In this document: in pieces, positions 6,391 to 49,629 of the stretch
Position numbering within the stretch: position 1 is the first letter of the stretch
How the letters are laid out: each line of letters begins with the position of its first letter
DNA from: Burkholderiales bacterium PBB3
GTDB lineage: Bacteria > Pseudomonadota > Gammaproteobacteria > Burkholderiales > Burkholderiaceae_C
Assembly: GCA_002256115.1 (NCBI GenBank)
Contig: NKIK01000003.1
Location: forward strand, 194,280-258,279
Direction of reading: 5' to 3'
DNA length: 64,000 nucleotides
Program-made: the position numbers and the translations under genes
The notes under the pieces: generated by a model
Seen by the model: only the letters and a program-made list of their open reading frames with translations
Database searches by the model: none
What the model was told of the DNA's origin: nothing

Positions 6391-6456
6391 TGCTATATAT
6401 TTAATAGCTTCTCCCGCACTATCCACAGCCTGAATGGCCGGTTTGGCTTAAATCCA
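6391..6456 (+). repeat. Dispersed repeat, copy 1 (variant core CTTCTCCCGCACTATCCACAG)
   Basis: Aligns with copies 5 and 11 across the core and the right arm '...GCCTGAATGGCCGGTTTGGCTTAAATCC'. Abuts the intron 5' end. Confidence 0.8.
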
Positions 6457-6990: not shown

Positions 6991-6996
6991 GTTATT

Positions 6997-28471: not shown

Positions 28472-28479
28472 AAACCCGC

Positions 28480-34561: not shown

Positions 34562-34577
34562 GTCAGCACAGCGTAAG

Positions 34578-34922
34578 CTACTGGTCTGTGGCGACGCCCA
34601 GCCGCCACAGCGACGTCACCTCTTTGGAGCGTGCTGCGTGCGGCGGGTCGGTGGCCACGATCCGGCCGATTCCCCGGCGCGCCAGCACCGCCAACAAAAC
34701 ACCGGTGCCCGTGCCAATATCAAAGGCGCACAGGGCCGCCACCGAAGCCACGCTAACGGCGCCGGGTGGGCCCCAGGCCTCTGCACAAGCCTGACGCGCA
34801 TCGGGGCTGCGCTTCAGAGGGACACTGTAGTCAGCCTCAAAGCCAATCAACAGCATGCCCAGCACGCGAGAGCGCTGGGCTTGGCGATGCAGATGGAAGC
34901 CTGCGGCAAAACTAAGTGCCAA
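34578..34922 (-). pseudogene. Decayed copy of the methyltransferase gene at 47407..48756
   Basis: The translation matches three separate blocks of the 467-aa protein ('FHLHRQAQ..VLGMLLIGFEADY', 'FDIGTGTGVL.AVLARRG', 'HAAR..EVTSLWRL'), with two large internal deletions and no N-terminal third. Confidence 0.65.
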
Positions 34923-34986
34923 ATCGGCCTTTGAAGCCGTGGATAGTGCGGGAGCAGCTCCTGAATTAATAGCGGTTAACGGGGAG
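34906..34986 (-). repeat. Dispersed repeat, copy 6
   Basis: 34936-34986 is identical (51/51 nt) to 28412-28462 of copy 5. Confidence 0.85.
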
Positions 34987-35020
34987 TTGTTTTAGCTTGT
35001 GGTGCATCTGCGCATCAGCA

Positions 35021-36373
35021 TCACGACGGCCGCACAGGCTTCTTGCCGCGCTTGGGCGCCAGCAATACCGACTCACCCACTCTTGCAGTGGCGAATTTCT
35101 GGGGTGGTGATGGCTCCATCACCCCCGCCTCTTGAGTGAGCTTTGTCATTTCTGGCACCTGGATTTGAATGCGCTCGTTCAGTCGATTGAGCCCTGCGTT
35201 CCAGTGCCACAGCATCCTCGCGCCCACCGCGTCAAACCCTGGCGTGTGCTTCATGCGTTGAATCAATTCCGGCACGGTCGCCGCCACGGCGGTGCACACC
35301 AGCTCAGCGAGTTCGCGTTGGCGCGGGGGGTCGATACCCAGAAACACTTGCATGAATTGCCACAAGGGCTTCAGATGGGTCCAGCTCTTGCGGCCATCGA
35401 TGGACATGCCTGGCGGGTTATCCGCGTAGCTGTCATAGGCCACGATGGTCAGCATGTCGTAGATGGGCGCGACATGCACATCCTCCAAGCCGGTGTACAA
35501 AAAAGCAAGATTCTTGGTGTGGCAGTCTGAGTTGCCAAGTGCGTGCGTCAACAGCAGTGTCACGGCCAGTTGCTCGTAGGACGCGCGGCGGCCCTGGGGT
35601 GGCACATAGTTGCGCACAAGGCGCGCGGCGCGCTCCCAGGTGCCGTCGTACTTTTGCTCGGCACCCATGCCCAGCATGCTGCAAAAGTCTTCAAAACCCA
35701 GCCGCTCGCCAGTGAGCGGATCAATGTCAAAGCGCTCGACCACGAGGATCTGACCGTCGTCGGAAACCACTGTTTCTGCAACCGCGAAGCCGGTGGCTTT
35801 GGCCGCTTGCATACACAGGTGCTCGTTGAGCCCCACAAGCGGTTGCTTGTCTGAGCTAGCTTTGACGATGTGGCGCTCTGTGGATACGGTGCCTTTGCGG
35901 AACAGTGCTTTGGTCTCTGGCGTCAGAAATTTGGGGACCACCCCCGACACGCCTGAGGCCGCGTACTGGCTCATCAATTGCAGAAACACTTCGCGCGAAG
36001 ACTCACCATGCAACAGTCCATCGAGTTCATTGGCGGCGAGTTGCGGATTGGGACTACTGCCTGCGCTTACCTGAACGCGACCGATCATGTTGTGCCCCAC
36101 CACCGACAGCAGATCCATGGGACTTGCTCCCAGATGCGGCCCCAACTGCTCTTTGAGGACGGACAGTAAAAACCCCTCCGGCAGACTCACCTGAAAGAAA
36201 GGGTGCAGATTGGGCCACTCCCAGCTGGGGGACTGCACGGGCATGAGCAGCGACACAAAATCCTCGGGAGGGGTTCCGTGCAGGTAGGTCAGGTAATGCT
36301 CAAACCCTGCGGGGCTCTGCAACACCGCCACATGTCTGCCGTTCACGAAGACATTGAGTTCTGCCTTGCTCAT
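35021..36373 (-). CDS. hipA: HipA-family Ser/Thr kinase toxin
   Basis: 450 aa. N-terminal HipA coupling region; catalytic loop 'GNSDCHTKNLAFL' (DxHxKN); overlaps the upstream HTH gene. Confidence 0.85.
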   Translation of the reverse strand: MSKAELNVFVNGRHVAVLQSPAGFEHYLTYLHGTPPEDFVSLLMPVQSPSWEWPNLHPFFQVSLPEGFLLSVLKEQLGPHLGASPMDLLSVVGHNMIGRVQVSAGSSPNPQLAANELDGLLHGESSREVFLQLMSQYAASGVSGVVPKFLTPETKALFRKGTVSTERHIVKASSDKQPLVGLNEHLCMQAAKATGFAVAETVVSDDGQILVVERFDIDPLTGERLGFEDFCSMLGMGAEQKYDGTWERAARLVRNYVPPQGRRASYEQLAVTLLLTHALGNSDCHTKNLAFLYTGLEDVHVAPIYDMLTIVAYDSYADNPPGMSIDGRKSWTHLKPLWQFMQVFLGIDPPRQRELAELVCTAVAATVPELIQRMKHTPGFDAVGARMLWHWNAGLNRLNERIQIQVPEMTKLTQEAGVMEPSPPQKFATARVGESVLLAPKRGKKPVRPS

Positions 36374-36669
36374 GGCTTGCCGGACGCTCCGTGCGAAGCA
36401 TTGCGCAGTTCTTGCTGCAAGTCGTTCAAATTGGGGCGGCGGGTAGCGGGCACAAACTCCATCTCCACATCCAACACCTGCAACAAACGCAAGAGCTTGC
36501 CTGCGGATAGATCGCTGGAGGCCCCCGTCTCAAAGCGCGACAGCGTCTCTTGTCGCAATCCGGCAGCTGCTGCTACCTCAGTCTGCGTCTTGCCCGCTGC
36601 CTTGCGCAGCTGCTTGTACCGCGCACCAACGTCGGGCAGTGTTAATAAGGGATTTGCGTTTGGCATCAT
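36370..36669 (-). CDS. hipB: XRE-family HTH antitoxin (HipB-like)
   Basis: 'YKQLRKAAGKTQTEVAAAAGLRQETLSRFETG' HTH. ATGA-type overlap with hipA. Start taken at ATG 36669; the ORF extends to TTG 36690. Confidence 0.75.
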   Translation of the reverse strand: MMPNANPLLTLPDVGARYKQLRKAAGKTQTEVAAAAGLRQETLSRFETGASSDLSAGKLLRLLQVLDVEMEFVPATRRPNLNDLQQELRNASHGASGKP

Positions 36670-36706
36670 AAATTGGAGAAAATTTTCCAAATCATGCTGT
36701 TCATTG

Positions 36707-36787
36707 CATATTTCGTCAATCCAAAATATGTTTTTCAGATCAAACTATTTGTAATTTTTGTAGAAATATGATTTGAATAGCATATTT
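36707..36787 (-). promoter_or_regulatory. Candidate hipBA operator/promoter region with two dyads
   Basis: CATATTT-N10-AAATATG (36707-36730) and AAATATG-N10-CATATTT (36764-36787) lie in AT-rich DNA just upstream of hipB. Confidence 0.4.
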
Positions 36788-36842
36788 TGGGCAAGGGAAG
36801 AAACGGCCAATGCTGGGTAAGCGCGCTGGCAACCGTGCCGAT

Positions 36843-36913
36843 CCCCCTAGATTAGTGGCCAAAAGTGCCTTTCAACCGGCGATAGTGCGGGGGCAGCTCC
36901 TGAATTAGTAGCA
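36843..36913 (-). repeat. Dispersed repeat, copy 7 (degenerate)
   Basis: 'CCCCCTAGATTAGTGGCCAAAAGTGCCTTTCAACCGGCGATAGTGCGGGGGCAGCTCCTGAATTAGTAGC'. Confidence 0.75.
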
Positions 36914-37092
36914 ATTCGCGCAGATAAAGACTCGGCATCATGTACTGCATGGACATATCGGCAGCCAACGGCTATTGGAGGCTCATTTCGGTCTTTGCAG
37001 CCTCTCCGAAGCGGTCGGTCAAAATGCAGTTTTAACGTTGGAGGCCAGGCGCGGCTGAAGGCCGTCGCCTCTGGGCCGACCAGTTAGATTTC

Positions 37093-37578
37093 TTATAGGC
37101 CAAGAACATCACAGTGAAGTGGCCTGAGGTGAAACTTGCGGCGTTCGCGGCCCTGCCACTCACGCGGTACTTTGTCGAGTTCGCAGTTGAGTGTGACGCT
37201 GTTGACAATGCCAAACCCCAAAGCTACCCACTCAAACTCTCGCGAGTCTGATCCTGCATTTACCTTAAACCAGAATGCCTGTGTCGGGTCGCTTGAACTG
37301 GGAGGCATGCCAGGGTATCGCACCGGGGTCGCTTTCCCGGTAGCCACAACGACAAGGGCAGTACCCCGCGCGTCGGTAGTCGCGTAAATTGGGCGTTCGC
37401 AATCATCCGAGCCCAAGCTTCTGTAATCCAGGCACGTTGAGATGCCTGCAGCTCGCACTGGCTTTCCCGACTTTGTCAGCGTCACAGTAATCGGCGTAAG
37501 GACGACGTTCTCCGCATAAGCGGCAGGTACAGCCAAAGCGAGTGCTAAGGCGATATGAATGTGCCGAACGTAATACAT
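37093..37578 (-). CDS. Small secreted hypothetical protein in a low-GC patch
   Basis: Start moved to ATG 37578 ('MYYVRHIHIALALALAVPAAYA|EN' signal peptide). The longer ORF to 37917 would overlap the HKD gene. Confidence 0.4.
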   Translation of the reverse strand: MYYVRHIHIALALALAVPAAYAENVVLTPITVTLTKSGKPVRAAGISTCLDYRSLGSDDCERPIYATTDARGTALVVVATGKATPVRYPGMPPSSSDPTQAFWFKVNAGSDSREFEWVALGFGIVNSVTLNCELDKVPREWQGRERRKFHLRPLHCDVLGL

Positions 37579-37849
37579 GCTCGCGTGAAATCTACTTAAT
37601 GTCCAGAGCACCAATAAGTGCTCGATAAACTGGCTGATGCACGATATTCTGGTCATCAAATCCTCCCGAAAGTGGCTTGCAGCCTCACTTTCACTGTTTT
37701 TCGACTTTGTTAAATGGATATCGATATTCTGGCAGACCTGCCGAGACTGGCGGATACAAAACCATGTCCACAGACTCCATGAGACTGAAATTGGGTGACC
37801 GTCCTGAACGACAGCTATCACCCACAGATCGCAACGAGCAGGCTGAATC

Positions 37850-38566
37850 TCAATCGCCCAACTTTCCCCACAACTGATCAAACGCCCCCTGAAACTGCCG
37901 CACCAACGCAGCGTCATTCGTCACAACCACGTTCTCTTCGTTATGAGCCGCAGCACTGCGCGTCCAGTTGTAGCTGCCGTTCAGCAGCCACTGCCCATCA
38001 AAGATCGCAAACTTGTGGTGCATGTGCGCATCGGTGCGGTCCACGGCGGTGGGCACACCGGCGGCGCGCAGTCGGGTCACATCGCTGCCGGAGTCGGTTT
38101 CTTTGTCGTTGTCGGTGATGAAGCGCAGGGCCACGCCGCGTGCATGCGCGGCCAGCACCTCTTGGGCGATGCGGTCGTCGGACACGGTGAACACACAAAA
38201 ATCTACGCTGCGGTGGGCGCTGCGGAAGTGCTCGACGATGGTGTTCAGGCAAGCTTCACCAGGGCTAAAGAATGCGCTGGAGCGAATGGCTTGCGCTGGC
38301 GTACGGGCCACGTCCAGCGCGCGCACCACGGCCTCCGTCCAGCGCAGCACGGCCATGGGGTCTTGCTGTTCGGCCAACCGGTTGCGCGCCAGTGTGAAAG
38401 CATGGTTGCGCAGTTGGCGAAAGCCGTCTTCCGGCGGCTGGGCCTGGCGCAGGGTTTGGGCCAGGCTGTGTTTCTCTTCGTCGTCCAAGCGCAGGTCGGC
38501 CAGAGAGGCTTCCAACTGGCCTAGCAAGTTTTCCATGTCTGCGGGTGTGGCAGTCATCGTTTCCAC
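37850..38566 (-). CDS. Single-HKD phospholipase D-family protein (Nuc-like nuclease/phosphodiesterase)
   Basis: 'HMHHKFAIFDGQWLLNGSYNWTRSAA' HKD motif near the C-terminus, after a ~90-aa helical N-terminal extension. Starts 2 nt after the giant gene's stop. Confidence 0.85.
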   Translation of the reverse strand: METMTATPADMENLLGQLEASLADLRLDDEEKHSLAQTLRQAQPPEDGFRQLRNHAFTLARNRLAEQQDPMAVLRWTEAVVRALDVARTPAQAIRSSAFFSPGEACLNTIVEHFRSAHRSVDFCVFTVSDDRIAQEVLAAHARGVALRFITDNDKETDSGSDVTRLRAAGVPTAVDRTDAHMHHKFAIFDGQWLLNGSYNWTRSAAAHNEENVVVTNDAALVRQFQGAFDQLWGKLGD

Positions 38567-38568
38567 AC

Positions 38569-41500
38569 TCAGCCCTCGGTCTTCTTGCCACCGCCCTGGG
38601 CACGCGGTGCCCGTGGCTCGTTGGCTTTGGCCAGCAGCAGCTCCAGCCGTTTACTGATGCTGTGGTCCAGGTCCATGCGCTTCTCCGTCGCGGCGATCAG
38701 CGGCATGATGACTTTGCGGTATGTCACCGCCAACTGCAGCACGGCCTCAGCCATTTGCGCTCCCTCACTGGGTTCTTTGGGTCCCGCTGCCGGGCGCAAC
38801 TCATCAACCGACCGGCTCACATCCAGCAGTGCATTGGCAATGCGCGTAGAGCCGTCCGCATCCGCCCCACCCGCTTTGCGCTGGCGCACAAATTCGGCGC
38901 AGATGGCCTGCCAACGCGCATCCTCCTCGGGGCTTGCGGTGCCCATCAGTTGGGCCAGCTTGAGTAGGTTTTCTTGCGTGCCGGTGGTCAGGGTCTGGGC
39001 CTCACCCCGGTAGTGGTCGCGCAGCAGGGCGTCCAGTTCATCCTCATGCATCAGCCCGGTGATCTGGGCAGCCAGCTTGGTCATATTGCGGTAGCTGCCC
39101 TGTAGCTTGAAAGCGGGCTCGGTGCGGTAGTCGTCACGCTGGGCGGCTGAATCGATATAGGCCTGGTTCACCTTCAGCAGCAGATCGCGCGCGCGGAACA
39201 GCCTTTGCATGAGTGCTTTAAGCTCTTCCAGTTCGGCACTACTGTAAGCATGGGCAAAGTCGCCGCTGGCCACCTCATCCCCCTGGGCCAGGCGCACCAG
39301 CAATTGCACATCGCGCGGGTCGCGCGATGACAGGGGTGCCAGCACCGGATTGCTGGTCAGGCTGTTCTCAATATACGACTGGGCGAACAGGGCTTCGCGC
39401 CCAGCCAACACATCGCCCAGGTTGTAGATATCGGCCCGGTTGGCCAGCATGTCCGGGATCTTGAAGACCTCGCCCGACTCGGTATACGGGTTGCCCGCCA
39501 TGGCGATGGCAAAGCGCTTACCGCGCAAGTCGTAGCTGCGCGCCTGGCCTTGCCACATGCCTTCAATGCGGCGCGTGCCATCGGCCAGGCCGATGAACTT
39601 CTGCAAAAACTCCGCACTGGTGTGCTGAATGTCGTCCAGGTAGAGCATCACATTGCTGCCCATGGCCAGGCCCAGGTTCAGCTTCTCCAGCTCTTGGCGG
39701 GCAGCGCTGTTGCTGGCCGACGCAGGGTCAAGCGCCGTCACGTCATGGCCCAGTGCGGGGCAGTTGATGCGCACAAACACCAGCCCCAGCCGGTCGGCCA
39801 CATATTCCATCAGCGTGGTCTTGCCATAGCCAGGCGGCGAAATCAGCAACAACAGCCCCATGCGGTCCGTACGGCTGGTGGCACCGGTGGTGCCAATCTG
39901 CTTGGCCAGGTTGTCGCCAATCATCGGCAGGTACACCTCGTCGATCAGACGGTTGCGCACAAAAGATGACAAAGGCTTGGCCTGGAACTGGGATAAACCG
40001 AGGCGCGATTTTTCTGCGCTCAGCAGTTCGTGGTGCAAGCTTTTGAGCGCTGCAAACGCGGGCACCACCGTTTCGGCATGCGCGCGGTAGCGGCTCCAGA
40101 AGTCATTCAAATTGATCTGCAAGCTGCCTTGATTGATGCGGGCGTGTTCGCTGCGCAAACCGGTCACCGTGGCATCCAGCACCACATTCACCCTGCGGCG
40201 CTGGCCTGGCACAGCCAATACGCAGGCGGCATCGTCTACCCATGCGATGGCGGTCGGCTGGTGCGCCAGTGCAAAGGCATGCATCCAGGCACGCGCCAGC
40301 AACCAACGCTCGGCGGGTGTGGATGCATCCAGGCTGTGTTGCCAATCCAGCGCTTGGCCCAGGCGCTCCAGCTCGCGCTGCAGTGCGCTGGCCATGTCTT
40401 CGCCCGCGCCGCTGATAACCCAGGCCTGCTCTGTACCTGCAGCCCCAATCTCCCGCAGCCAATAGCTCGCGGCTTGATGGCACGCGGTCTGGTGATGCCC
40501 GTTATCAACGGACACTGGCGACAACGCGAAGCCGCTCTCTTCGGCAAACTGCAGCACGCTGTGCGCGGCCTCCACTTCCAGTTTTTGCAGGCTATCGCCA
40601 GCGCCAAAGAGGTGTTGCACTTGCAGCGCTGCACGCGCACGCCGCCGCCAAGACGCCTGCGCCTCACCCGAGCCCAAGTGCTGCCAAACCAATGTCGCCA
40701 GCGCGCGCTCTGTGGGGCCCCAAGTCAGCAAGCCTGCCTGCTCTTGCATGGGCACCAAAGCAGCAACCAAGCGCACCGCATCTTCGTCGTGCACGCCCTT
40801 TTCGTACCCTTCTTGATAACGGGCTGCGGCAAATTGGCGCACGCCCTCCAGCAGCGCCGCATGGCCGTCTTCACCTTGCGCCACCAGCGCCAGAGTTTGT
40901 GCCCAGGTCAGTGTGGCCTGCCCTTTTAGAACCTCTTCAATCCAACTTGCCGCCAAGTACTCTGCGCGGCTGATCAGCGCGGTCTCAGACGGCAGGGCTT
41001 GTTGCCAATACGGGCGATACGCGTCCAGCCGCGCGTCTTGCAGCGGTGCCCGGTAATCCGTGCCCGTCAGGTAAAAGGCCATGCTGTCGCCCAGCGGAGC
41101 CAGTGTGAGCTCCAGCGGCTGGCGGCTGATGGTGAAAGCGTGGCGGCCCAGGCGCAAATGGTTGCCGCCCTCAGACACCAGCTCGCGCTGATCACGCACC
41201 GCGCGCAAGGCGTGGTCGCGGCAAGTCTTGAGGCGCGTGTCCAGATCATCCGCAGCCACCTGGTCACCCAGGCCCCGCATGTCTGCAATCAGAGTGCGCA
41301 GCTTGGCAATCAGCAAGTCCGCCGCAAAGTAGCTGTGCACTTCTTCCAAGCCACTGAGCTGGGCCACACGGCGCTGCGCCCCGTCCAAAATGCGACCGGC
41401 CGCTGCAGCCAGAGCCTGCACGCGCTGCTGGCGCGCTTGCACCAGCGTTTGCTTGCGCGCGGTCAGCGCTTCGTAGACGGCCTCGCGTTTCTCTGTCACA

Positions 41501-43743
41501 TCGGCCAAGAACTCAGCGTGCTCGGCAAAGCGGCCCTCCAGCTCTTCCAGTTGGGCCAGCAGGCGGGTCAATGCGTCATCGCATTTTTCGGGGGTGTCGG
41601 CAAAGTCCAGCGCGTTCTCCACCGCTTGGCCAAACAATTTGAACTGGGCCTGAAACTCGGCTGCCGCCTCGCGCGAGCCCAGTGCCTTGCGTCGGTTACG
41701 CGCATCGGCTCGCAAGCGGTTGATGTCGGTGTACAGCGCAGAAATGCGCTCCAGAATGCCAGTGCGCTGCACGGCATCGCCGCCGGGCAAACCACCCAGC
41801 TGTTCGGTCAGCAGGTCCAGGCCTGCGGCCGTATCGTCCAGCCCCTGCAGAATGCTTTGTAGGCCCTGGCTGGTGGATACCTTGGGCAGCTCAGTGGCCA
41901 CTTGTGCCAGTTGCTGCTGGTGGGCGTGGAAGGCCTTTGCATCGGCCATGAAGGCCATGGCGCGCTCACCCACGCGCTGCTGCTCGGCCACCAGCTCGGT
42001 GTGCATGGCCTCTATGCGGGGCAGATCGGTGTAGCGCAGTTCTTTCAGGGTTTCCAGGTGGCCGCGGCGTTCGCGCAGGCGGCCCAGCGCCGCCACAAAG
42101 TCTTCGGGCTTGCGCCATAGCGTGCTGGCAATATCCACCACCAGTGCCTTGTGCTGGGCCTGTGCTTCGTCCAGGGCCTTGGCGGTCTCCTTGCGGATTT
42201 GCTCTACCTTCTCAAACTCGGCCAGCGTGGTGCGCGCCGCATCGCCAATGCCTTGCAGGTCTTGCAGCAAAGCACCCGCCTCGGGGTCGGCCAGCCAAAA
42301 ATAAGCGTCTGTGACGCGTCCGCATTGGCGAATCAAATCCTCATAGGCGGTGCGGGTGGGCGCTTGCTCTTGCAAGGCGCGCGCAATGCCCATCAACTCG
42401 GCAATACCGCGCACCAGCTCCGCATTGCCGATACGGCTGAAAAAGCCGGTGCCCGCATTCGCGCCGCCCGCGTACTCCTCGCTAAAAAACGGGGTTTGCC
42501 ACAGCTGCATCGGGTGCAGCCGCGTGGGCTCACCCATGCCCGCCTGAAACACCAGCACCTTGCCATCGGCAAACAGCGCGTAGCCATTGGCCACGATCGG
42601 CGCGGCCAAGGATTTATCGATCAGGTTGTAGGTAAACAGCGCATAGTGGCCGCTGACCGGCTGGTAAAACAGATACAGCACATCCTCGCCATTGGGCGAG
42701 CGCAGCATGCGCTTGAAGCGCAAATTGCGTGCAACATCTTCAGGCAAATCAAAGTGCTTGAACTCGCCCGACTGCAGGTAATAGCCACCCGGAAACACAA
42801 TGCCGTGGTCCTCCGGCAACTGCACACACGACAAGCCAATGGCATCAATGCGCGCTACCTGCAGCGTGCGCTGGTTGAAGACCAGATAGCGGGTAGTTTG
42901 TTCGCGATAGGGCCGCACGCGCAGCAAAATGAGTGCGCCCAGCTTGGCGTAGGCCACCTCGGCATCGGTGAGCGACTGGCTCTTGTCGTCCACCGGCTCG
43001 CTGTAAATGCCCAGTCCGGTTTCGGTGTTGTTCTCTACCTTAACGGTCAGGTCGCCACCCACCGTCTCCACGAATACCGTGTCCAGAATATTGATATGCG
43101 GATGCTTGCCGTCCACATGGTTTTCACGGGTGGTTGGCGTCCATTCAAAGTCGTGGCTAGGCGGTAGCGCAATGTCGCGCTCGCCACGGTTGTCCAGATA
43201 CTGCAGCGTGCCATCTGGCGACAACTGCCAGCGGAACACGCGCACGTCGTGCACTTGCTGACCTATCTGAAAAGCCGCCAGCAGCTTACCCTGCGTGACC
43301 CGCAGTTGCAGCAGTTGGGCTTGCTTGTAATAGGCGTAAAGCTCTTTGAAGTCGGATGCGAAACGCGCGTCTTCCAGAAAGCTGCCAGCCAGAGGCACAT
43401 CTTCCAGATCCTGCTCGGTACCCATGCGGTACAGCGCAAAAACATCCCCCACGCTGGTCTCTTTGCGCAGGCCAATGAAAACGTTATAGCCAAACAGCAG
43501 CAGATCGCCAATGCGCACGATGTCGCGGGCGACACAGTTGTTTTGGGTGCGGGCACGGGTGCGCAGTACCAGCGTTTGCTCGGACTTGCCAAACTCTAGC
43601 GTGCGGGCGGCATTGAGCGTTTGTGCTTTTTTAAGCAGCACTTCGCCCTGCACGGTCAGGCGATTCTTCAGCAGCTCGTAGCTATTGCTGCCAGCGACCA
43701 GACTCTCAGTGGAGTCTGCCGCCGCGGATGTGTCAGAAGGCAT
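38569..43743 (-). CDS. 1,724-aa protein with one C-terminal AAA+ (MoxR/AAA_5-like) module; N-terminal 1,300 aa unassigned
   Basis: Walker A 'SPPGYGKTT' (nt 39814-39837), Walker B 'VMLYLDD' (nt 39631-39648), 'AMAGNPYTESGEVFKIPDMLANRADIY'. Residues ~480-900 are Ala/Leu/Gln/Arg-rich and coiled-coil-like. Uninterrupted ORF with coding-like composition. Confidence 0.85.
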   Translation of the reverse strand: MPSDTSAAADSTESLVAGSNSYELLKNRLTVQGEVLLKKAQTLNAARTLEFGKSEQTLVLRTRARTQNNCVARDIVRIGDLLLFGYNVFIGLRKETSVGDVFALYRMGTEQDLEDVPLAGSFLEDARFASDFKELYAYYKQAQLLQLRVTQGKLLAAFQIGQQVHDVRVFRWQLSPDGTLQYLDNRGERDIALPPSHDFEWTPTTRENHVDGKHPHINILDTVFVETVGGDLTVKVENNTETGLGIYSEPVDDKSQSLTDAEVAYAKLGALILLRVRPYREQTTRYLVFNQRTLQVARIDAIGLSCVQLPEDHGIVFPGGYYLQSGEFKHFDLPEDVARNLRFKRMLRSPNGEDVLYLFYQPVSGHYALFTYNLIDKSLAAPIVANGYALFADGKVLVFQAGMGEPTRLHPMQLWQTPFFSEEYAGGANAGTGFFSRIGNAELVRGIAELMGIARALQEQAPTRTAYEDLIRQCGRVTDAYFWLADPEAGALLQDLQGIGDAARTTLAEFEKVEQIRKETAKALDEAQAQHKALVVDIASTLWRKPEDFVAALGRLRERRGHLETLKELRYTDLPRIEAMHTELVAEQQRVGERAMAFMADAKAFHAHQQQLAQVATELPKVSTSQGLQSILQGLDDTAAGLDLLTEQLGGLPGGDAVQRTGILERISALYTDINRLRADARNRRKALGSREAAAEFQAQFKLFGQAVENALDFADTPEKCDDALTRLLAQLEELEGRFAEHAEFLADVTEKREAVYEALTARKQTLVQARQQRVQALAAAAGRILDGAQRRVAQLSGLEEVHSYFAADLLIAKLRTLIADMRGLGDQVAADDLDTRLKTCRDHALRAVRDQRELVSEGGNHLRLGRHAFTISRQPLELTLAPLGDSMAFYLTGTDYRAPLQDARLDAYRPYWQQALPSETALISRAEYLAASWIEEVLKGQATLTWAQTLALVAQGEDGHAALLEGVRQFAAARYQEGYEKGVHDEDAVRLVAALVPMQEQAGLLTWGPTERALATLVWQHLGSGEAQASWRRRARAALQVQHLFGAGDSLQKLEVEAAHSVLQFAEESGFALSPVSVDNGHHQTACHQAASYWLREIGAAGTEQAWVISGAGEDMASALQRELERLGQALDWQHSLDASTPAERWLLARAWMHAFALAHQPTAIAWVDDAACVLAVPGQRRRVNVVLDATVTGLRSEHARINQGSLQINLNDFWSRYRAHAETVVPAFAALKSLHHELLSAEKSRLGLSQFQAKPLSSFVRNRLIDEVYLPMIGDNLAKQIGTTGATSRTDRMGLLLLISPPGYGKTTLMEYVADRLGLVFVRINCPALGHDVTALDPASASNSAARQELEKLNLGLAMGSNVMLYLDDIQHTSAEFLQKFIGLADGTRRIEGMWQGQARSYDLRGKRFAIAMAGNPYTESGEVFKIPDMLANRADIYNLGDVLAGREALFAQSYIENSLTSNPVLAPLSSRDPRDVQLLVRLAQGDEVASGDFAHAYSSAELEELKALMQRLFRARDLLLKVNQAYIDSAAQRDDYRTEPAFKLQGSYRNMTKLAAQITGLMHEDELDALLRDHYRGEAQTLTTGTQENLLKLAQLMGTASPEEDARWQAICAEFVRQRKAGGADADGSTRIANALLDVSRSVDELRPAAGPKEPSEGAQMAEAVLQLAVTYRKVIMPLIAATEKRMDLDHSISKRLELLLAKANEPRAPRAQGGGKKTEG

Positions 43744-43751
43744 GCAGACCC

Positions 43752-44288
43752 TTACCAGTCAGCACGCAACAAGGCGACTAGCTCGTCACGGCCTGGCTGC
43801 GCCTGAAGCCACTGGCGAATGCGTGCCAGCTCATCCATGGTCTCAGCGCCGTGGCGTTGGCGCAGCACGGCTTCGCGTCCTTGGCGCAACTCGTTAGTCT
43901 GCAATTGGCGCTGCCAAGCATCGGTCAGAATCTCGTCGAGCCGGCTGCCCAGACCTGCTGCCACAAATGCCTGCCACTCGCCGCGGGCAAACCAGACGTT
44001 CTGGCACGCAGCGCAACGGTCCACGCGGAAGTCGGGCTGCGCGCCTACGCGGAAACGCTGCATCAGGCGCGCGCACGCAGGGCAATGCCGGGCGATCGGG
44101 TCTTCATCGGCAGCGATGGCTTGCGCCACCGGCGGCACCGGTGTTTTGTCGCGCCAGGCGCGGTAGTCGTCGAGTTGTAAAAGCTGGCCTTCACAACTGA
44201 CGCATTCCAGGCCCTGCAGTCCGGGTGCCAATTCGCAGACTGTGAGTTCGGTGTGGGCCTCGCAGCCGCAGCGCAGTGTTGATTTCAT
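43752..44288 (-). CDS. Double zinc-ribbon protein (zf-TFIIB-like)
   Basis: 'CPACARLMQRF...VDRCAACQNVWFARGEW' matches the CPxC...DxCxxCxGxWxDxGE pattern. A degenerate first copy is 'CGCEAH...CVSCEG'. 8 nt upstream of the giant gene. Confidence 0.65.
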   Translation of the reverse strand: MKSTLRCGCEAHTELTVCELAPGLQGLECVSCEGQLLQLDDYRAWRDKTPVPPVAQAIAADEDPIARHCPACARLMQRFRVGAQPDFRVDRCAACQNVWFARGEWQAFVAAGLGSRLDEILTDAWQRQLQTNELRQGREAVLRQRHGAETMDELARIRQWLQAQPGRDELVALLRADW

Positions 44289-44303
44289 GGGTGTGCTCCT
44301 GCG

Positions 44304-46466
44304 TTACTCGGGTTTCTGGCCACTTTTGTTGGTCTTGGACAGCAAGGAGGCAATCGCCAGGTCTTTCAGCTCGCCCGACGAGTTGCCGAGCGACCCGACC
44401 AGTTGCCCCAGGTCGTCCACCATATTGCGTTTGCCCGACAGGTGATCTTTCAGCCCGATCTTCAGCGTATCGCTCTTGGCGATAGCGCCGTCGATGCCCT
44501 TGCCCACCGCCAGCGCACTGACGAAACGCTCGAAGTAGCTGCCGTCGCCGCCCACCATCTCGATCTTGGCATTGGCCAGTGCTTTGCCCAGGACTTCGGC
44601 CTGCTCTTTGGCGATGGCGGTTTGTGCATCGATGCCCTTGAGGGTCTCGGTATGCGCCATCTCCAGCCGCATGCGGTATTCCTCGTGGTCGCGCGTTTCG
44701 CTGCTCATGGCCTTCATGGCTTCAAACTTCTCGCGCAGGCCCTTGGCCTCTGCAGAGAAGCGTGCTTGCACGTTCTGGGCATCAGCTTCGCCTGCCTTGA
44801 TCGTGGCTTCGGCTCCGGCGGTGCGCACAGCCACTTCGGCCAGGCCCAGTTTCTCTTTGCCTTGCGCTTCAGCTTCCAGTTTGGCCTGCAGGCCCGTGGC
44901 TTCGGCTTGCGCGCGCGCTTCGATCACCTGCGCGTCTGCCAGGCCGGCTTTGATGGTGGCTTCCACGCCCGCTGTACGCACCGCCACATCGGCCAGGCCC
45001 AGCTTCTCTTTGCCTTGCGCTTCAGCCTGGTTACGCGCCTCAATCACATGCACATCCGACAGACCCTTTTTCTCGGTGGCGTCGGCAGTCACCATCATCA
45101 CGCGGGCGGCCGCCAGGCCAGGGGCGGCACTCACTGCCTCCATGCCTTCCGCCTCCCGCTTTTTGGACTCGGCGTTCTTCTCTGACACCTTGAGTCGCGC
45201 ATCCGCCATGGCGACTTCTTCGCTAGCTTTGTGGCGTGCACTGCGTTCTTGCGACTCTGCCGCCTTCACTTCCGCAATCATTTTTTCTTCGGCCTGACCT
45301 TCAGCCAGGATGATGGTGGAGCGCTTGGTGCGCTCTGCCTCCGCTACCACGCGCAGTTCCTTGATGGCTTCTTCTTGCTCGGCCACGGTGCGGTCCACCA
45401 CGATGCGTTCGCGGATCACGTCGGCAATGGCTTTCTTTTGCACCTCCAGCGCGCGTTCTTTGTCGATCTTCTGCAGGGCCACTTCTTTCTCGCGGTCCAC
45501 CACTTCCAGGTCGCGCGCACGAATCACTTTTTCTTCTTCAATGGCCACCGCGCGCTTGCGGTTGTTCTCGGCCACTTCTTTTTCGCGCAATGCGTTTTCG
45601 TTTTGCACTGCTACCTGCTGCTCGCCTTGCAGGCGCGCCATCTCGGATTTGGTGCGTTCCTCAGATTGGATCTTGGAAGTCTCGGCCTCTTCGCGAGCGC
45701 GCATGGTGGCCACTTCCCGCTGCTGGCGGGCTTGGGCGTCGGCGGCCTGGCGATCCAGCTCCAGCATGGTCTCCTGGGTTTCCACGTTTTTCTTCTTGAT
45801 CTGCATCTCTTCGTTGCGGCGCAGCTCGTTGGTGCGCACGCTCTCCACCGCCGTCAGCTCGGTGATTTTCTTGATGCCCTGGGCGTCCAGAATATTGCTC
45901 GCGTCCAGCTTGGACACCGGTGTTTGCTCCAGGTAGTCAATGGCAGCATCTTCGAGCACATAGCCCGACAGGTCGTCGCCAATCTGGCGAATGATTTCGT
46001 CGCGGAAATGGTCGCGCGCCTGGTACAGGTCCACAAATTCCATGGACTTGCCCACGGTTTTGAGCGCCTCTGAAAACTTGGAGGAGAACAGGTCTTCCAA
46101 CGCATCCTGGTTGGAGGCTCGCTCGCAGCCCACGCCTTGGGCGACCTTCAAAACGTCTTCCGCGGTTTTGTTGACGCGTACGAAAAACTTGACCTTGATG
46201 TCGGCGCGGATGTTGTCCTTGCAGATCAGCCCTTCGCGGCCCGAACGGTCAATCTCAATGGTCTTGACCGAGATGTCCATCAACTCGGCCTTGTGGATGA
46301 TGGGGTAGACCATGCAGCCTGTGAAAGTGACCGTAGGCTCAGCGCGCATGGTGTTCACGATCAGGGCGTGGCCCTGCTCAATCTTCCGGTAAAAGCGCGC
46401 AAACAATACAAACATGCCGAACACGATGACCGTGATGACGGCTGCTGCGACGATGATGGGTTCCAT
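44304..46466 (-). CDS. yqiK: Flotillin-like SPFH (band 7) protein
   Basis: N-terminal TM 'IIVAAAVITVIVFGMFVLFARFYRK', SPFH domain, long Glu/Ala/Arg coiled coil. Internal 153-nt duplication ('QGKEKLGLA(D/E)VAVRTAG.EATIKAG' twice, period 44838 vs 44991). Confidence 0.9.
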   Translation of the reverse strand: MEPIIVAAAVITVIVFGMFVLFARFYRKIEQGHALIVNTMRAEPTVTFTGCMVYPIIHKAELMDISVKTIEIDRSGREGLICKDNIRADIKVKFFVRVNKTAEDVLKVAQGVGCERASNQDALEDLFSSKFSEALKTVGKSMEFVDLYQARDHFRDEIIRQIGDDLSGYVLEDAAIDYLEQTPVSKLDASNILDAQGIKKITELTAVESVRTNELRRNEEMQIKKKNVETQETMLELDRQAADAQARQQREVATMRAREEAETSKIQSEERTKSEMARLQGEQQVAVQNENALREKEVAENNRKRAVAIEEEKVIRARDLEVVDREKEVALQKIDKERALEVQKKAIADVIRERIVVDRTVAEQEEAIKELRVVAEAERTKRSTIILAEGQAEEKMIAEVKAAESQERSARHKASEEVAMADARLKVSEKNAESKKREAEGMEAVSAAPGLAAARVMMVTADATEKKGLSDVHVIEARNQAEAQGKEKLGLADVAVRTAGVEATIKAGLADAQVIEARAQAEATGLQAKLEAEAQGKEKLGLAEVAVRTAGAEATIKAGEADAQNVQARFSAEAKGLREKFEAMKAMSSETRDHEEYRMRLEMAHTETLKGIDAQTAIAKEQAEVLGKALANAKIEMVGGDGSYFERFVSALAVGKGIDGAIAKSDTLKIGLKDHLSGKRNMVDDLGQLVGSLGNSSGELKDLAIASLLSKTNKSGQKPE

Positions 46467-46523
46467 GAAAACTCCCTAGTGAAACAAATTACTTAAACGA
46501 TCGAAGAGGCAGTGCGCAGGGCG

Positions 46524-47153
46524 CTAAGGCTCCGCCACCACCTTGTAGCGTGCTGTCTTTTCGTCATAGCCCACGATGCGTGCACTGCTACCGCGTGCCA
46601 GTGCATTGGGCACAGGCGTCCAGATGCGAATATTGATGCTGGCACCGTGCTGGGCCACCTCGGCGCGGCCCATCTGCTCATCCACCGTTTGGGTCAGCAC
46701 TTTGCAGGTCTGCCCCACCAGCGATGCATTGTTGATGGCAGCGTGGGTGACGAACAAACCACGCAGCGGCCGAATCATGCGGGCACTGACCGTGACCGCC
46801 AAAGACAGGCTGGCCAGGGCCAACACAGCACCCGCGCCGTAGTTGGCTGCGGCACCACCCAACCAGGGCAGCACCCACATGGCCCCCAGGCAGCTCAGTG
46901 TCCAAGCGACCAATATGACCAGGCTGACCGCGATAGAAAATGGAACCCCGTGCAGGCCGAAAGCGACCACATAGCTGGCCACCGTGCTGATCTCGTAGCC
47001 GTCCACATCGGCGGCAGAGCCAGGCTCCAGGTCCAGAGACTCTAAATCGACCACGCCCAGCAGGGCCAGCAGCCAGTAAAAGATCACGACCCCTAAAAAA
47101 GTCGTGAAGAGTGCGGTGGGAAATGCGACCACCGCGTCCAAAAAGCTCAGCAT
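46524..47153 (-). CDS. yqiJ: YqiJ-like inner-membrane protein with C-terminal NfeD-type OB fold
   Basis: 209 aa, which I recall is about the size of E. coli YqiJ. Multiple TM segments, then a beta-rich 'LVGQTCKVLTQTVDEQMGRAEV...' domain. Directly upstream of the flotillin gene, as in yqiJK. Confidence 0.7.
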   Translation of the reverse strand: MLSFLDAVVAFPTALFTTFLGVVIFYWLLALLGVVDLESLDLEPGSAADVDGYEISTVASYVVAFGLHGVPFSIAVSLVILVAWTLSCLGAMWVLPWLGGAAANYGAGAVLALASLSLAVTVSARMIRPLRGLFVTHAAINNASLVGQTCKVLTQTVDEQMGRAEVAQHGASINIRIWTPVPNALARGSSARIVGYDEKTARYKVVAEP

Positions 47154-47311
47154 TGTTCTCCCTCTTATATGGCTAAGCGCCGTTTTGCCGCGATGTTAGC
47201 CAATCTGGCCCGCGGCGGGCCCGTTTTCTACGGGCTTGCGGATATTGTGTGCAATAAATTGGCCCCACAGCGCAAAAGCCATCTTGGGCTTAGGGGCCTT
47301 GGCAGCCGCGC

Positions 47312-47382
47312 AATTTAAATGAATTCAAGCTGTAGAGCCCATGGATAGTGCGGGAGCAGCTTCTGAATTGATAGCAATCAAT
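47312..47382 (-). repeat. Dispersed repeat, copy 8
   Basis: '...GAGCCCATGGATAGTGCGGGAGCAGCTTCTGAATTGATAGCAATC'. Confidence 0.8.
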
Positions 47383-47406
47383 AACAACGAATGGCCAACT
47401 GCGGGG

Positions 47407-48756
47407 CTAGCGTGCGGGTGCCACCGCCAACCGCCACAGCGAGGTGACCTCTAGCGCACGCGCCGCGTGCAGCGGGTCGGCCGCATCAAAGGCCTTGCCA
47501 TGCACCGGCTTGGTATCCAGCCGCCCCAGCACCTGCAGGCCCGCGCCAGCAATCGCGTCCAACAATTCAGCGCGGCTGCGCAGGCCCAGGTGTTCGGCCA
47601 AATCCGAGAGGATCAGCCAGCCCTCGCCCTGCGGCTCCAAGTGCGCGGCCAGGCCCGCCAAAAAGCCCAGCAGCATAGCGCTGCCTTCGTCATACACCGC
47701 GTGCTCTATGGGTGAGCTGGGCCGGGCGGGTAGCCACGGCGGGTTGCACACGATCAGATGCGCCAGCCCTGGCGGGAATAGGGATGTCTGCAACAACTGC
47801 ACCGGCGAATCAGCGCGGCCCGCCACGCCCAGCCTCTGCAAATTTTCAGCCGCGCAGGCCAGGGCGCGCGGGTCCAGATCGGTGGCCACGATATGGCCCA
47901 CACCCCGGCGCGCCAGCACCGCAGATAACACGCCCGTGCCCACACCAATGTCAAACGCCGTCAGCTTGGCGGCGGCCTGCGCACCGTGGGCTCCTTGGAC
48001 TCCTTGGACTACTTGGACACTTGGCAGCGGTGCCTGCTGCACCAAGCTCACATACTCACCCCGCTGCGGAGAAAACACGCCGTAGTGCGGGTGGATGCGG
48101 TTGTGGGGCGCAGCGCCCAGGGCGGGCACTTCCACACCGTTTTTGCGCCACTCGTGCGCGCTGATCAGGCCCAGCAGCTCACGCAATGACGCTACCGAAG
48201 CCACAGCGTCCGCACCCGGCGGGCCCCAAGCCTCAGCACAGGCCTGGCGCGCATCGGGGGCGCGCTTGAGTGCGATACCGTAATCCGCCTCAAAGCCAAT
48301 CAGAAGCATGCCCAGCACGCGCGCACGCTGCGCCTGGGCTTGGCGGTGCAAATGAAAGGCAGTGGCCGGATTCGATGCCTTTTCGGCCACTGAGGCCGTG
48401 GATAGTGCGGGAGCAGCTCCTGAATTAATAGCATTGCGCTCTGGCGCGCCCGCTAGTTGCTTTGCCCTCTTGATGGCCTTGGCACCCTTGGCGGCTTTGC
48501 CGCTGGGGCCCGACGCATCGGCCCGCCGCGCGAGCGCCTGCAGCATCTGCCGCGCGTTTTGAAAATCACCCCGCCACAGCAGCGCCGTGCCTTCGCAGGC
48601 CAGGCGGTAAGCGACATCGGCGCTCAGGGTGTCATCGGCCAGCACCACGCGCTTGGGTGGGCTGACACCACGCTCTGAGCGCCACTGCGCGCTGCAGGGC
48701 TGGCCGGCTTCTTGCCAGTGGATGCGGGCTTCGCCCGATGTTGGTGAAGTCGTCAT
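47407..48756 (-). CDS. Class I SAM-dependent methyltransferase (NPPW motif; HemK/RsmC-like) with a long N-terminal extension
   Basis: 'FDIGVGTGVLSAVLARRG' motif I, 'LIVCNPPWLPA' motif IV. Start ambiguous (48756, 48771 or 48810). Contains repeat copy 9 in frame. Confidence 0.75.
   Translation of the reverse strand: MTTSPTSGEARIHWQEAGQPCSAQWRSERGVSPPKRVVLADDTLSADVAYRLACEGTALLWRGDFQNARQMLQALARRADASGPSGKAAKGAKAIKRAKQLAGAPERNAINSGAAPALSTASVAEKASNPATAFHLHRQAQAQRARVLGMLLIGFEADYGIALKRAPDARQACAEAWGPPGADAVASVASLRELLGLISAHEWRKNGVEVPALGAAPHNRIHPHYGVFSPQRGEYVSLVQQAPLPSVQVVQGVQGAHGAQAAAKLTAFDIGVGTGVLSAVLARRGVGHIVATDLDPRALACAAENLQRLGVAGRADSPVQLLQTSLFPPGLAHLIVCNPPWLPARPSSPIEHAVYDEGSAMLLGFLAGLAAHLEPQGEGWLILSDLAEHLGLRSRAELLDAIAGAGLQVLGRLDTKPVHGKAFDAADPLHAARALEVTSLWRLAVAPAR
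48366..48433 (-). repeat. Dispersed repeat, copy 9 (in frame inside the methyltransferase)
   Basis: '...GAGGCCGTGGATAGTGCGGGAGCAGCTCCTGAATTAATAGC', translated on the minus strand as '[19 protein letters not shown]'. Confidence 0.8.
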
Positions 48757-48760
48757 AAGT

Positions 48761-49075
48761 TCAGTAGCCATGGAGGGCGTATTCCAGGGCGTCCCAAATG
48801 GCTTCGGCATCGCCTTGCAGGTTGGCTACTGGGCGGCGCAGATCGCCGGGCTCATGGGAGGTAATCGCCAAAGTCTCCAACACAAGCATTTCACCCGCAA
48901 CACTCAGCCAGGGATTCAGTGTGGTGGGAGGCGCTGTTTGCGTATCCGGGCGCGCCAACGCCACGGTGATCACCGCTACGGGGCGTTTCAGAAAATTGCT
49001 TTGAATGCCGACGACGAAGGGATGACTGTCGCGCAACTCTTCGACCGGGTTGGGGTACACATCGAACTGAGCCAT
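48761..49075 (-). CDS. ccdB: CcdB-family toxin
   Basis: 104 aa. 'MAQFDVYPNP......PFVVGIQSNFL' matches the CcdB N-terminal pattern. 1-nt overlap (TGATG) with the upstream antitoxin gene. Confidence 0.7.
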   Translation of the reverse strand: MAQFDVYPNPVEELRDSHPFVVGIQSNFLKRPVAVITVALARPDTQTAPPTTLNPWLSVAGEMLVLETLAITSHEPGDLRRPVANLQGDAEAIWDALEYALHGY

Positions 49076-49488
49076 CAGTTGGCTTCACCTGTGGAAGCTG
49101 CAGCGGGGCTTTGCTTCTTCAGCGCCTTGGCCTTACGCCATTCGTGAATACGTATCCCCATCGATCCAATCTTTGCCATTCGCCGGTTCATGGCCTCAAT
49201 GGCCTCTTTGTTCTCATCCTCCCATTGCGTACGGGCCGCTTCCACTTCAGCAGGGCTACGGGCTGCTGCCGCTGCGCGACGGGCTATGCGCTCTGGCGTA
49301 AGCCAGCCGTTGCCCGCAGCATTCACTTTGTAGGTGGCGCTCTCCTCCTGGACGCTGGGGGTGACGGGCACGACTTTGACCGGTTGCATGACGATGCTGC
49401 CATCGGCCTGCACGGTCAGATCAAACAGCTGACCCGCGTACTTTTTACCCAGCGATATCTGGCCGCTGGCGCCCACTTCTTTCAGCAT
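49075..49488 (-). CDS. ccdA: CcdA-like antitoxin with an N-terminal AbrB/SpoVT-like swapped-hairpin segment
   Basis: Start at ATG 49488 ('MLKEVGASGQISLGKKYAG...'). C-terminal 'WEDENKEAIEAMNRRMAKIGS' resembles the CcdA signature. Confidence 0.6.
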   Translation of the reverse strand: MLKEVGASGQISLGKKYAGQLFDLTVQADGSIVMQPVKVVPVTPSVQEESATYKVNAAGNGWLTPERIARRAAAAARSPAEVEAARTQWEDENKEAIEAMNRRMAKIGSMGIRIHEWRKAKALKKQSPAAASTGEAN

Positions 49489-49629
49489 GGTGATGCTCCT
49501 GCAAAAACAATTCATGCCATCATGCCGCATGAATGCAGCCTGTCAAGCTGCCATGGCGCGGCGCACATGCACTAAAGTTCGCCCACCCCATCACTAACCC
49601 TCACCACCCCTCATTCACCCTCGCCCACC

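Follow-up and report, generated by a model that had tools for sequence, protein, structure and literature searches.

We analysed a 64,000-nt stretch of DNA (hereafter the window) from Burkholderiales bacterium PBB3, a metagenome-assembled genome (MAG), in which a 12.4-kb accessory segment lies between an intact methyltransferase gene and a shortened, decayed copy of it, the relic. On the other side of the relic follow three signalling genes, two of them for hybrid histidine kinases, and then dinB, the gene of a stress-induced polymerase. An analysis made from the sequence alone (the original prediction) took the two methyltransferase copies to be a duplicated target bracketing the segment as a single acquired unit. 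Our results point elsewhere: the relic is probably a diverged foreign fragment rather than a local duplicate, judging by its codon-level divergence, and we lean towards the reading that it arrived together with the kinase module, by stepwise addition at the 3′ end of dinB mediated by a dispersed repeat of about 60 nt, here called R. The interval between the methyltransferase and dinB is a hot spot for gene exchange, and its scars, among them two dinB relics, allow much of that exchange to be read.

Anatomy of the relic and its junction with dinB

The regions of the relic and of the intact methyltransferase were compared by blastn, both read on the minus strand, and aligned in three collinear, significant blocks: 34973..34737 with 48432..48190 (79.5% over 244 nt, E 8e-45), 34727..34648 with 47958..47879 (80.0%, E 1.5e-12) and 34651..34598 with 47480..47427 (79.6%, E 1.9e-6). 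The relic is a genuine decayed methyltransferase homologue. The original prediction had described the open reading frame (ORF) 34578..34922 as collinear with three methyltransferase blocks at about 80% identity, with both copies on the minus strand and a repeat at the same relative position in each, and in all of this it was right, its coordinates lying within a few bases of ours (features are listed in Table 1). The homology, however, extends about 50 nt further 5′ than the predicted frame, to 34973, which is the outer edge of R. The relic lacks the first ~125 codons of the intact methyltransferase and is cut off exactly at R. It has also lost 630 nt through three deletions, and because all three are in frame a relic ORF of 114 codons survives; what they removed includes invariant core motifs, namely the HEWRK..NRIHPHYGVFSP block and NPPW. 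By eye, the alignment has a short matching sequence, GACCCGC, at the ends of the 402-nt deletion. At its 3′ end the relic has its stop codon (34578) about 40 nt from the start of the first kinase gene (34537), the same adjacency of methyltransferase and hybrid histidine kinase that is seen in three related loci (L007, L089 and L095).

At its 5′ end the relic joins, via R, a stranded tail of dinB and not any cargo-specific sequence, and the duplicated-target claim fails at this junction too. The plus strand at 34918-34997 translates as a dinB-like C-terminal end, directly beside the hipA stop codon. In dinB itself, an alignment of 3′ ends places R in the linker just before the C-terminal tail, VNGELF-stop, which is probably the β-clamp-binding motif of DNA polymerase IV (Pol IV). 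The motif GTTAACGGGGAG occurs in the window only at 28451 and 34975. The stranded tail, GAGTTGTTTTAGCT (GAG TTG TTT TAG CT), matches the dinB tail of the related locus L001 exactly, and the current dinB tail, GAGCTCTTTTAAAA (GAG CTC TTT TAA), differs from the L001-type tail. Perfect direct repeats of 51 nt (28412-28462 and 34936-34986), which comprise most of R and the first tail codons, bracket the relic and the kinases, and the segment that they delimit (28412-34986) is a relic-plus-kinase module of 6.5 kb.

Between hipB and the gene for a putative secreted protein lies a second dinB 3′ relic (relic no. 2), a frameshifted remnant in which a short stretch of dinB body is joined to R and a degenerate tail. 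By blastn, dinB 28358-28449 corresponds to 36823-36912 with 85.9% identity (E 1.6e-24, R included); the flank outside R matches at 19/20 positions (E 0.054), which is marginal alone, and the translation is collinear with that of dinB (KKRPMLGKRAGNRADPPRLVAKSAFQ vs KKLRLLGVRVGALANRADLPGLIAKSALQ). Since this relic separates hipBA from the remaining cargo, the ‘12.4-kb’ segment is itself composite. The same type of scar occurs in L001: beyond its PIN-MazE module, at positions 6960-7100, that genome has a dinB 3′ relic of its own, made up of a body fragment, R and a tail. Read along the plus strand, the window thus presents the dinB body, R, the new tail, the three signalling genes, the methyltransferase 3′ relic, R and the old dinB tail, and continues with hipA and hipB, the older dinB relic, the secreted-protein gene and a five-gene operon, R, and the intact methyltransferase (3′ part, R, 5′ part).

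The proteins of the window methyltransferase and kinases are 100% identical to proteins of the PBB3 MAG record. As an independent check assembly we used two short-k contigs from run SRR5749613. The first, 12,402 nt long, reproduces 34957-47358 and was 100% identical over the 11,417 nt compared (34957-46373); the second reproduces 28433-34951, 6.5 kb, with one mismatch. Their ends, at 28433, 34951-34957 and 47358, all fall inside R copies, and R is a systematic assembly breakpoint in the PBB3 genome. A MAG contig misjoined at the 51-nt repeat, with the kinase module and relic taken from another strain or locus, would be compatible with these stops and with the metagenomic origin of the window. 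We nevertheless judge such a chimera very unlikely. With three deletions and no 5′ end the relic is a pseudogene wherever it is placed, and in the independent assembly it lies, deletions included, on one contig with the kinases; the dinB tail at the end of the kinase module requires a neighbouring dinB; ordinary reads exceed the 51-nt repeat in length, and the 258-kb contig crosses many other R copies; and the two assemblies, with a single mismatch in 6.5 kb, differ no more than expected of one population.

Divergence of the two methyltransferase copies

Divergence was measured over the 103-104 relic codons outside R. Four-point comparisons of synonymous divergence (dS) gave conflicting topologies, dS being near saturation, and were set aside; we relied on counts by codon position, on sign tests and on bootstraps. 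The relic and the intact copy show 17, 10 and 42 differences at codon positions 1, 2 and 3, with a nonsynonymous divergence (dN) of 0.117, a dS of 0.865 and a dN/dS ratio of 0.136. For comparison, the intact copy and its functional orthologue in L001 give a dS of 0.80 and a ratio of 0.13. The pattern by codon position is like that of functional orthologue pairs, an old divergence under purifying selection, and therefore the relic diverged almost wholly as a working gene.

These values bear directly on the original model, in which an in-place duplication of the methyltransferase, or of its 3′ part, was followed by the arrival of cargo between the copies and by decay of the downstream one. The direct orientation of the copies and the repeat at the same relative position in both would suit it, as would the fact that the relic finds its top nucleotide identity, 77-78%, in the intact copy. 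Neutral decay, however, would have spread the differences evenly over the codon positions, and a dS of about 0.9 is as large as, or larger than, that to the orthologues of other species, among whose compared loci we found none with two methyltransferase copies. In neighbour-joining trees the relic was sister to the intact copy in 41/500 bootstraps and fell outside a clade of the intact copy, L001, L006, L007, L089 and L087 in 353/500. Nor is the 5′ boundary of the relic explained by the gene's own context, because what stands there, R and a dinB tail, is left without a cause. We therefore regard duplication in place as highly improbable, and the view of the two copies as a target bracketing one 12.4-kb unit is not borne out. 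Of the accompanying claim that the repeat insertion predates the duplication, the age holds, R being older than the event (it occupies the same position in orthologues from related lineages), and the duplication itself falls away.

The intact copy, at full length, has a dS of 0.60-0.62 to L001, L003 and L006, and backbone genes compared with the same relatives have similar values (yaaA 0.65-0.69, hydrolase 0.61, queF 0.66, ECH 0.70, dinB 0.58-0.63), so the intact copy is the resident orthologue. The relic, in contrast, has a dS of 1.29-1.37 to L001 and L006, vs 0.72-0.80 for the intact copy over the same columns, and third-position sign tests gave 24:10 (p 0.024) and 25:11 (p 0.029). At first and second positions the relic showed no excess of differences against L001 (11:12) and an excess against L006, L087, L089 and L007 (17:6 up to 21:2), so that some relaxed constraint in the relic may have contributed. 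The signalling genes beside it are similarly divergent: the first hybrid histidine kinase is 65% identical to that of L007 at the amino-acid level, with a dS of 1.41, and the response regulator has a dS of 1.19, vs 0.55-0.87 for the backbone (ECH, dinB, FMN dehydrogenase and methyltransferase). A foreign origin of the module is supported because the relic, the kinase and the regulator are dS outliers and the intact copy is backbone-like. Overall, the divergence statistics support the view of the relic as an import and, given the few sites and a dS near saturation, fall short of proof.

The methyltransferase–dinB interval in related genomes

To place the window among its relatives, one genome per species was scanned with a methyltransferase profile, the 80 best loci were kept, each with 10-kb flanks, and every window protein was searched against them by tblastn. 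The close relatives, most of them metagenomic contigs, have methyltransferases that share about 80-85% identity with that of the window, and close methyltransferase homologues come from Comamonadaceae, Oxalobacteraceae, Gallionellaceae and other Burkholderiales. A backbone is shared, in the order yaaA, hydrolase, queF ... ECH, (ccdAB), methyltransferase ... dinB, an rskA-like gene and FMN dehydrogenase. Between the same flanking genes, methyltransferase and dinB, the contents differ: hicB and PIN/MazE in L001-L005, a hydrolase in L006, nothing in L008, a PAS hybrid kinase and an HD response regulator in L007, L089 and L095 (beginning 10-140 nt beyond the methyltransferase stop codon), and the operon, hipBA and kinases in the window. 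The operon, hipBA and secreted-protein gene were found next to the methyltransferase in 0/80 of the species-level loci, and in none of the close metagenomic relatives, which confirms the original prediction that the segment between the copies is accessory. An empty site, in which methyltransferase, kinase, regulator and dinB follow one another with nothing between, also exists, in the L007, L089 and L095 loci.

The second window kinase, which lies between the response regulator and dinB, is missing from the L007 and L095 modules, which are otherwise similar. When kinase homologues were used to look for a donor, none was closer than 65% identity.

Upstream of the intact methyltransferase, the ccdAB pair is of mixed affinity. 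At the amino-acid level, ccdA shares 74% identity with its L001 counterpart over the N-terminal (DNA-binding) half and ~35% over the C-terminal half, the latter also being the value for ccdB. DNA homology of ccdAB to L001 stops at 49330, inside ccdA; by this comparison the N-terminal half looks backbone-like, and a different allele makes up the rest of ccdA and the whole of ccdB.

This discontinuity is relevant to the possibility that the transfer ran in the opposite direction, namely that an ancestor already bearing the kinases (as in L007) received ccdB, the intact methyltransferase, the operon, hipBA and a dinB tail from a related donor, with the relic as the displaced resident. The crossovers would then lie in or upstream of ccdA on the left and, on the right, between the R of the donor dinB and the R of the recipient methyltransferase. 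Such a transfer predicts an identical anatomy, including the dinB tail beside hipA; the break at about 49330 could be its left crossover, and the relic would retain the adjacency to the kinase that is native to L007, L089 and L095. Against it, the intact methyltransferase sits at backbone level in dS (0.60 to L001/L006), the outliers are the relic (1.3) and the kinase and regulator (1.2-1.4 to L007), and the outer flanks are uniform, so that the donor would by coincidence have to be as far from L001 as the recipient is. Moreover, toxin-antitoxin alleles swap often, which makes the ccdAB discontinuity weak evidence. We think the opposite direction unlikely, if worth keeping in view.

A proposed stepwise model of the interval

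The account that we favour would run as follows. The ancestor would have carried the methyltransferase, the five-gene operon, the secreted-protein gene and hipBA, with hipA facing dinB. Of these, hipBA would have been added earlier, through an event anchored in dinB on one side and closed by an illegitimate join on the far side, leaving relic no. 2. Later, DNA would have come in from a more distant relative in which a methyltransferase, kinase and regulator faced dinB, as they do in L007, L089 and L095. One crossover would have fallen within dinB or close to it, the other between the R of the donor methyltransferase and the R of the recipient dinB; integration of a 6.5-kb circle at R is an alternative route that would give the same product. 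Gained in this way would be the 3′ part of the donor methyltransferase, the two hybrid kinases, the HD-domain response regulator and a new dinB tail, and the old tail would have been left stranded beside hipA. The imported methyltransferase fragment would thus never have had a 5′ end or promoter here, and would then have lost 630 nt through the three in-frame deletions. The recombination may have been homologous or illegitimate, with the fragment a passenger of the last module. The data show the anatomy, the lack of the cargo in relatives, the divergence pattern and both dinB relics; direction of transfer, order of events and pathway are the parts of this account that we infer.

Several observations support its separate elements. 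Import of the kinase module is supported because R forms the exact starting point of the relic and links it to a dinB tail, and a source of the donor type because the arrangement of methyltransferase, kinase and regulator facing dinB exists in three lineages. Stepwise addition at the dinB end is supported because L001 shows the same scar beyond its PIN-MazE module, and replacement of the tail because the stranded tail matches the dinB tail of L001 and the current one differs.

A number of points weigh against this account. The comparable relic codons are few, and dS over them nears saturation. The sign tests give modest p values (about 0.02-0.03), and neighbour joining can draw a pseudogene, with its long branch, towards the base of the tree. 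At third positions the relic is 59% identical to the intact copy vs 50-52% to all others. The closest kinase homologue is only 65% identical, no donor lineage is present among the sampled genomes, and the kinase genes may simply be fast-evolving. Sliding-window comparison of dinB and of the intact methyltransferase gave no internal breakpoint, so the second crossover has no located position in dinB, and the first could not be mapped within R, as the R copies are mosaic: the R of the relic matches either the methyltransferase-type or the dinB-type variant at 13/22 positions. Finally, with the independent contigs ending inside R copies, it is the MAG contig that supplies the links across the 51-nt repeat.

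The repeat R

R is dispersed through the 64 kb in about 11 copies, in both orientations. Allowing up to 3 mismatches, the window contains 3 occurrences of a 35-mer taken from R, vs 0 expected by chance. An Rfam search returned no family for R, and shuffled sequence folds as well as R does (z −1.6 to +1.3), on which grounds its identification as a repetitive extragenic palindromic (REP) hairpin or as an attC site was dropped. With no such fold, no integrase and dispersal in both orientations, R does not have the character of an integron cassette site either. A ‘long form’ of R as a repeat subfamily was likewise rejected, the extra sequence being the coding tail of dinB.

The methyltransferase and dinB of other lineages (L007, L008 and L001) carry their own lineage's variant of the R core at the same spots, for example GTAGCTACTnAGGCAG in L007 vs GGAGCTGCTCCCGCAC in the window. 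These lineage-specific cores suggest concerted evolution or repeated replacement of the intragenic copies, for which whole-repeat identities (63-83% within a genome, 60-68% between genomes) give weak support.

R could also be an attachment site, with R-bounded cassettes or circles moved by a site-specific recombinase encoded elsewhere in the genome, the scars then being of att type and not the product of RecA. The modules of the interval are bounded by R (at 28391, 34915, 36854 and 47317); the flanking 51-nt direct repeats, together with a replaced dinB tail (new 28453-28471, old 34977-34997), are reminiscent of integrative islands, which rebuild the 3′ end of the gene they enter; and the de Bruijn graph allows the 6.5-kb unit to be closed as a circle equally well. 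An island would, however, be expected to carry a recombinase gene at one end, and a Pfam search of every ORF in 27116-49530 found no integrase and no tyrosine or serine recombinase domain, leaving none in or beside the interval. R is, besides, a genome-wide family whose copies, some 11 in 64 kb, mostly do not bound obvious cassettes; it has no significant secondary structure (z about 0) and no Rfam family; and relic no. 2 holds dinB body sequence outside R, which suggests that its junction was not site-specific. We regard a site-specific mechanism as quite unlikely. A composite transposon or insertion sequence (IS) is not indicated either, there being no transposase, and the bounding repeats being direct 60-nt R copies; on the absence of integrase and transposase domains from the segment, a Pfam search of the ORFs in 34578-47407 agrees with the original prediction.

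Near another R copy (6389-6448), and 33 nt from it, lies a compact group II intron without an ORF (5838-6356, minus strand). Its domains D1-D4 match Rfam group-II-D1D4-6 with 166.6 bits (6134-6356), its domains V-VI match Intron_gpII with 37.6 bits, just below the family threshold (5838-5915), and no reverse-transcriptase ORF lies inside it. The proximity raises the question of R as a homing context.

Cargo genes and other features

Table 1. Genes, relics and R copies of the methyltransferase–dinB region, in window coordinates.
Feature	Position	Strand	Evidence or remark
dinB (Pol IV)	27116..28471	+	Pfam IMS; current tail 28453-28471
R copy, in frame in dinB C-terminal linker	28391-28452	within dinB (+)	
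Second PAS hybrid histidine kinase	28480..30966	-	38% amino-acid identity to the first (paralogue)
Response regulator with HD (HD_5) output domain	30975..32030	-	Pfam
PAS hybrid histidine kinase, directly downstream of relic	32027..34537	-	Pfam
Methyltransferase relic, 3′ part only	34578..34914	-	In-frame deletions of 6, 222 and 402 nt
R copy at junction of methyltransferase relic and dinB tail relic no. 1	34915..34976	-	34936-34986 identical to 28412-28462
dinB tail relic no. 1, AVNGELF-stop	34977..34997	+	Between R and hipA stop codon
hipA toxin kinase	35021..36373	-	Pfam HipA_C 4e-39, Couple_hipA 1e-12
hipB antitoxin	36370..36690	-	Pfam HTH_3 1.3e-12
dinB 3′ relic no. 2	36797..36930	+	Contains R (36854-36912)
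Low-GC gene, small protein with signal-peptide-like N-terminus	37093..37656	-	No family match
Operon gene 5, PLD-family (NucT/DrmC-like) nuclease	37850..38557	-	Pfam PLDc_2 E 4e-30; gene call in L097
Operon gene 4, 1724-aa DUF3686 + DUF7902 + AAA+ protein	38569..43743	-	Pfam DUF3686 E 4.5e-197
Operon gene 3, zinc-ribbon protein	43752..44288	-	Pfam Zn_ribbon_TFIIB
Operon gene 2, SPFH/flotillin-like, N-terminal membrane segment and long coiled coil	44304..46466	-	Weak Pfam Flot, E 0.009
Operon gene 1, multi-pass membrane protein	46524..47153	-	Hydrophobic segments
R copy between methyltransferase stop codon and first operon gene	47317..47377	-	
Intact methyltransferase, class I S-adenosylmethionine-dependent (HemK/PrmA-like, NPPW motif)	47407..48810	-	Pfam MTS/PrmA; 467 aa
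R copy, in frame in methyltransferase linker	48374..48434	-	
ccdA/ccdB pair upstream of intact methyltransferase	48761..49530	-	Pfam CcdB

The hipBA pair has the organisation of a type II toxin-antitoxin system, in that the gene for the helix-turn-helix antitoxin precedes hipA and overlaps it (36370-36373). In the five-gene operon, a triad of membrane protein, SPFH protein and DUF3686-AAA ATPase forms a conserved cluster, collinear in L092, L093 and L094. The same triad order occurs on pQBR103 and on a Hymenobacter plasmid, where the neighbouring genes are annotated as SPFH and DUF1449 proteins and PspA lies upstream. The triad, which is uncharacterised, was noted in L092, L094, L099 and L100, and it ranges from Burkholderiales to Deinococcus, Streptomyces, Vibrio and Hymenobacter, plasmids included; some of the examined neighbourhoods contain PspA or a PLD nuclease. 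In other Burkholderiales (L092 and L094) the triad stands in unrelated contexts.

The window protein of operon gene 1 has no Pfam match itself, and its positional counterpart on the Hymenobacter plasmid, before the SPFH-type gene, is annotated as belonging to the DUF1449 family, which we take to be YqiJ/NfeD-like. The counterpart by position of operon gene 2 on pQBR103 is annotated as an SPFH domain protein; the window gene contains, in its coiled-coil region, a 153-nt tandem duplication (73% identical, 44719-45024). The zinc-ribbon gene is absent from the homologous operons in L092 and L094. Homologues of operon gene 4 are annotated ‘DNA repair ATPase’, the best being 79% identical, in unrelated contexts and also on plasmids.

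PADLOC 2023 returned no described defence system for the operon, giving generic PLD-nuclease matches to MkoB, DpdK and DrmC (E 1e-8 to 1e-3) and marginal ones for the ATPase, and NCBIfam gave no system-level identity. A full-text literature search for DUF3686 and PF12458 found no paper on the operon, and a sequence search of the PDB with the ATPase and the flotillin-like protein yielded nothing useful and no solved structure. Our guess is that the operon has a membrane-associated stress or nucleic-acid-targeting role.

Some gene calls of the region required correction. The source annotation starts the intact methyltransferase at 48756 (449 aa), and an exact look-up of the 467-aa protein found no match because the database protein starts 18 codons later. 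The minus-strand ORF at 49615-50319 (234 aa) was rejected as a gene, being antisense to a real enoyl-CoA hydratase gene (49630-50475, plus strand); it is conserved because the plus-strand gene is. The minus-strand ORF 49075-49530 is an over-extended ccdA. At the left edge of the window (75-329) lie short tandem repeats with alternating 18- and 15-nt spacing, in 8 overlapping copies of a 102-nt unit.

Discussion

In kind, this is an ordinary variable region, and what gives it interest is its details: the passenger fragment, the in-frame repeat as a crossover point and the serial dinB relics. Its closest analogy may be with the minimal mobile elements of Neisseria, gene cassettes that lie between conserved flanking genes and are swapped through transformation and homologous recombination. 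As in Neisseria, the methyltransferase and dinB enclose whole-gene modules that differ by lineage, with no integrase or transposase. Minimal mobile elements, however, are replaced cleanly as alleles, whereas here one crossover would lie between non-allelic R copies, so that modules pile up and relics stay behind. Natural transformation, moreover, is not known for PBB3, and uptake followed by recombination in the flanks is what the scars and the divergence pattern suggest.

Another way to view the region is through homology-facilitated illegitimate recombination, or additive integration, described in Acinetobacter and pneumococcus. One anchor in dinB and another join with little or no homology would account for the partial dinB duplicate that is relic no. 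2. The last event differs in that its second join would have used a 60-nt repeat with 51 identical nucleotides, enough for ordinary homologous recombination, and for all these events the likeness is drawn from comparative data.

Some integrative elements insert in the 3′ end of a gene and supply a replacement for it, such as e14 in icd and the islands of tRNA genes. The window resembles these in the insertion within the last codons of dinB, the new AVNGELF-stop tail supplied, the old tail at the far end and the flanking direct repeats. Unlike them, it has no integrase or excisionase here, its ‘att’ is a member of a genome-wide repeat family, and in place of a phage or island backbone the insert carries a fragment of another housekeeping gene.

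As for R itself, the palindromic elements of Rickettsia are short repeats inserted in frame in protein-coding genes, and R is similarly translated, without disruption, in the variable linkers of two conserved proteins. R differs in being neither palindromic nor significantly folded, and its role here would be that of a recombination substrate. In this last respect it is closer to the repeats of REP- and IS-mediated rearrangement, where dispersed copies provide portable homology for recombination of the RecA type; the outcome here, however, would be the gain of a foreign module and not the duplication or deletion of resident sequence, and no transposase is involved. A bolder proposal is that R is the recombination site of a cassette accretion that needs no local integrase, repeatedly loading modules on the 3′ end of dinB and restoring the clamp-binding tail each time. 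We rate this as quite improbable; if it were true, the in-frame R copies in conserved genes would be kept as landing pads shared across Comamonadaceae-like genomes.

The case also bears on how such regions are read. A variable region without mobility genes proves readable from its scars, and a diverged gene fragment beside an island need not be a duplicated target, since it may be the passenger of a neighbouring import; statistics by codon position separate the two. Repeats with 51 identical nucleotides are, at the same time, a place where assemblies break. For the biology of these bacteria, a short dispersed repeat that is translated in two conserved genes appears to act as a crossover point for the gain of foreign modules, which is relevant to how Burkholderiales MAGs gain toxin-antitoxin, signalling, and membrane-stress or nuclease operons.

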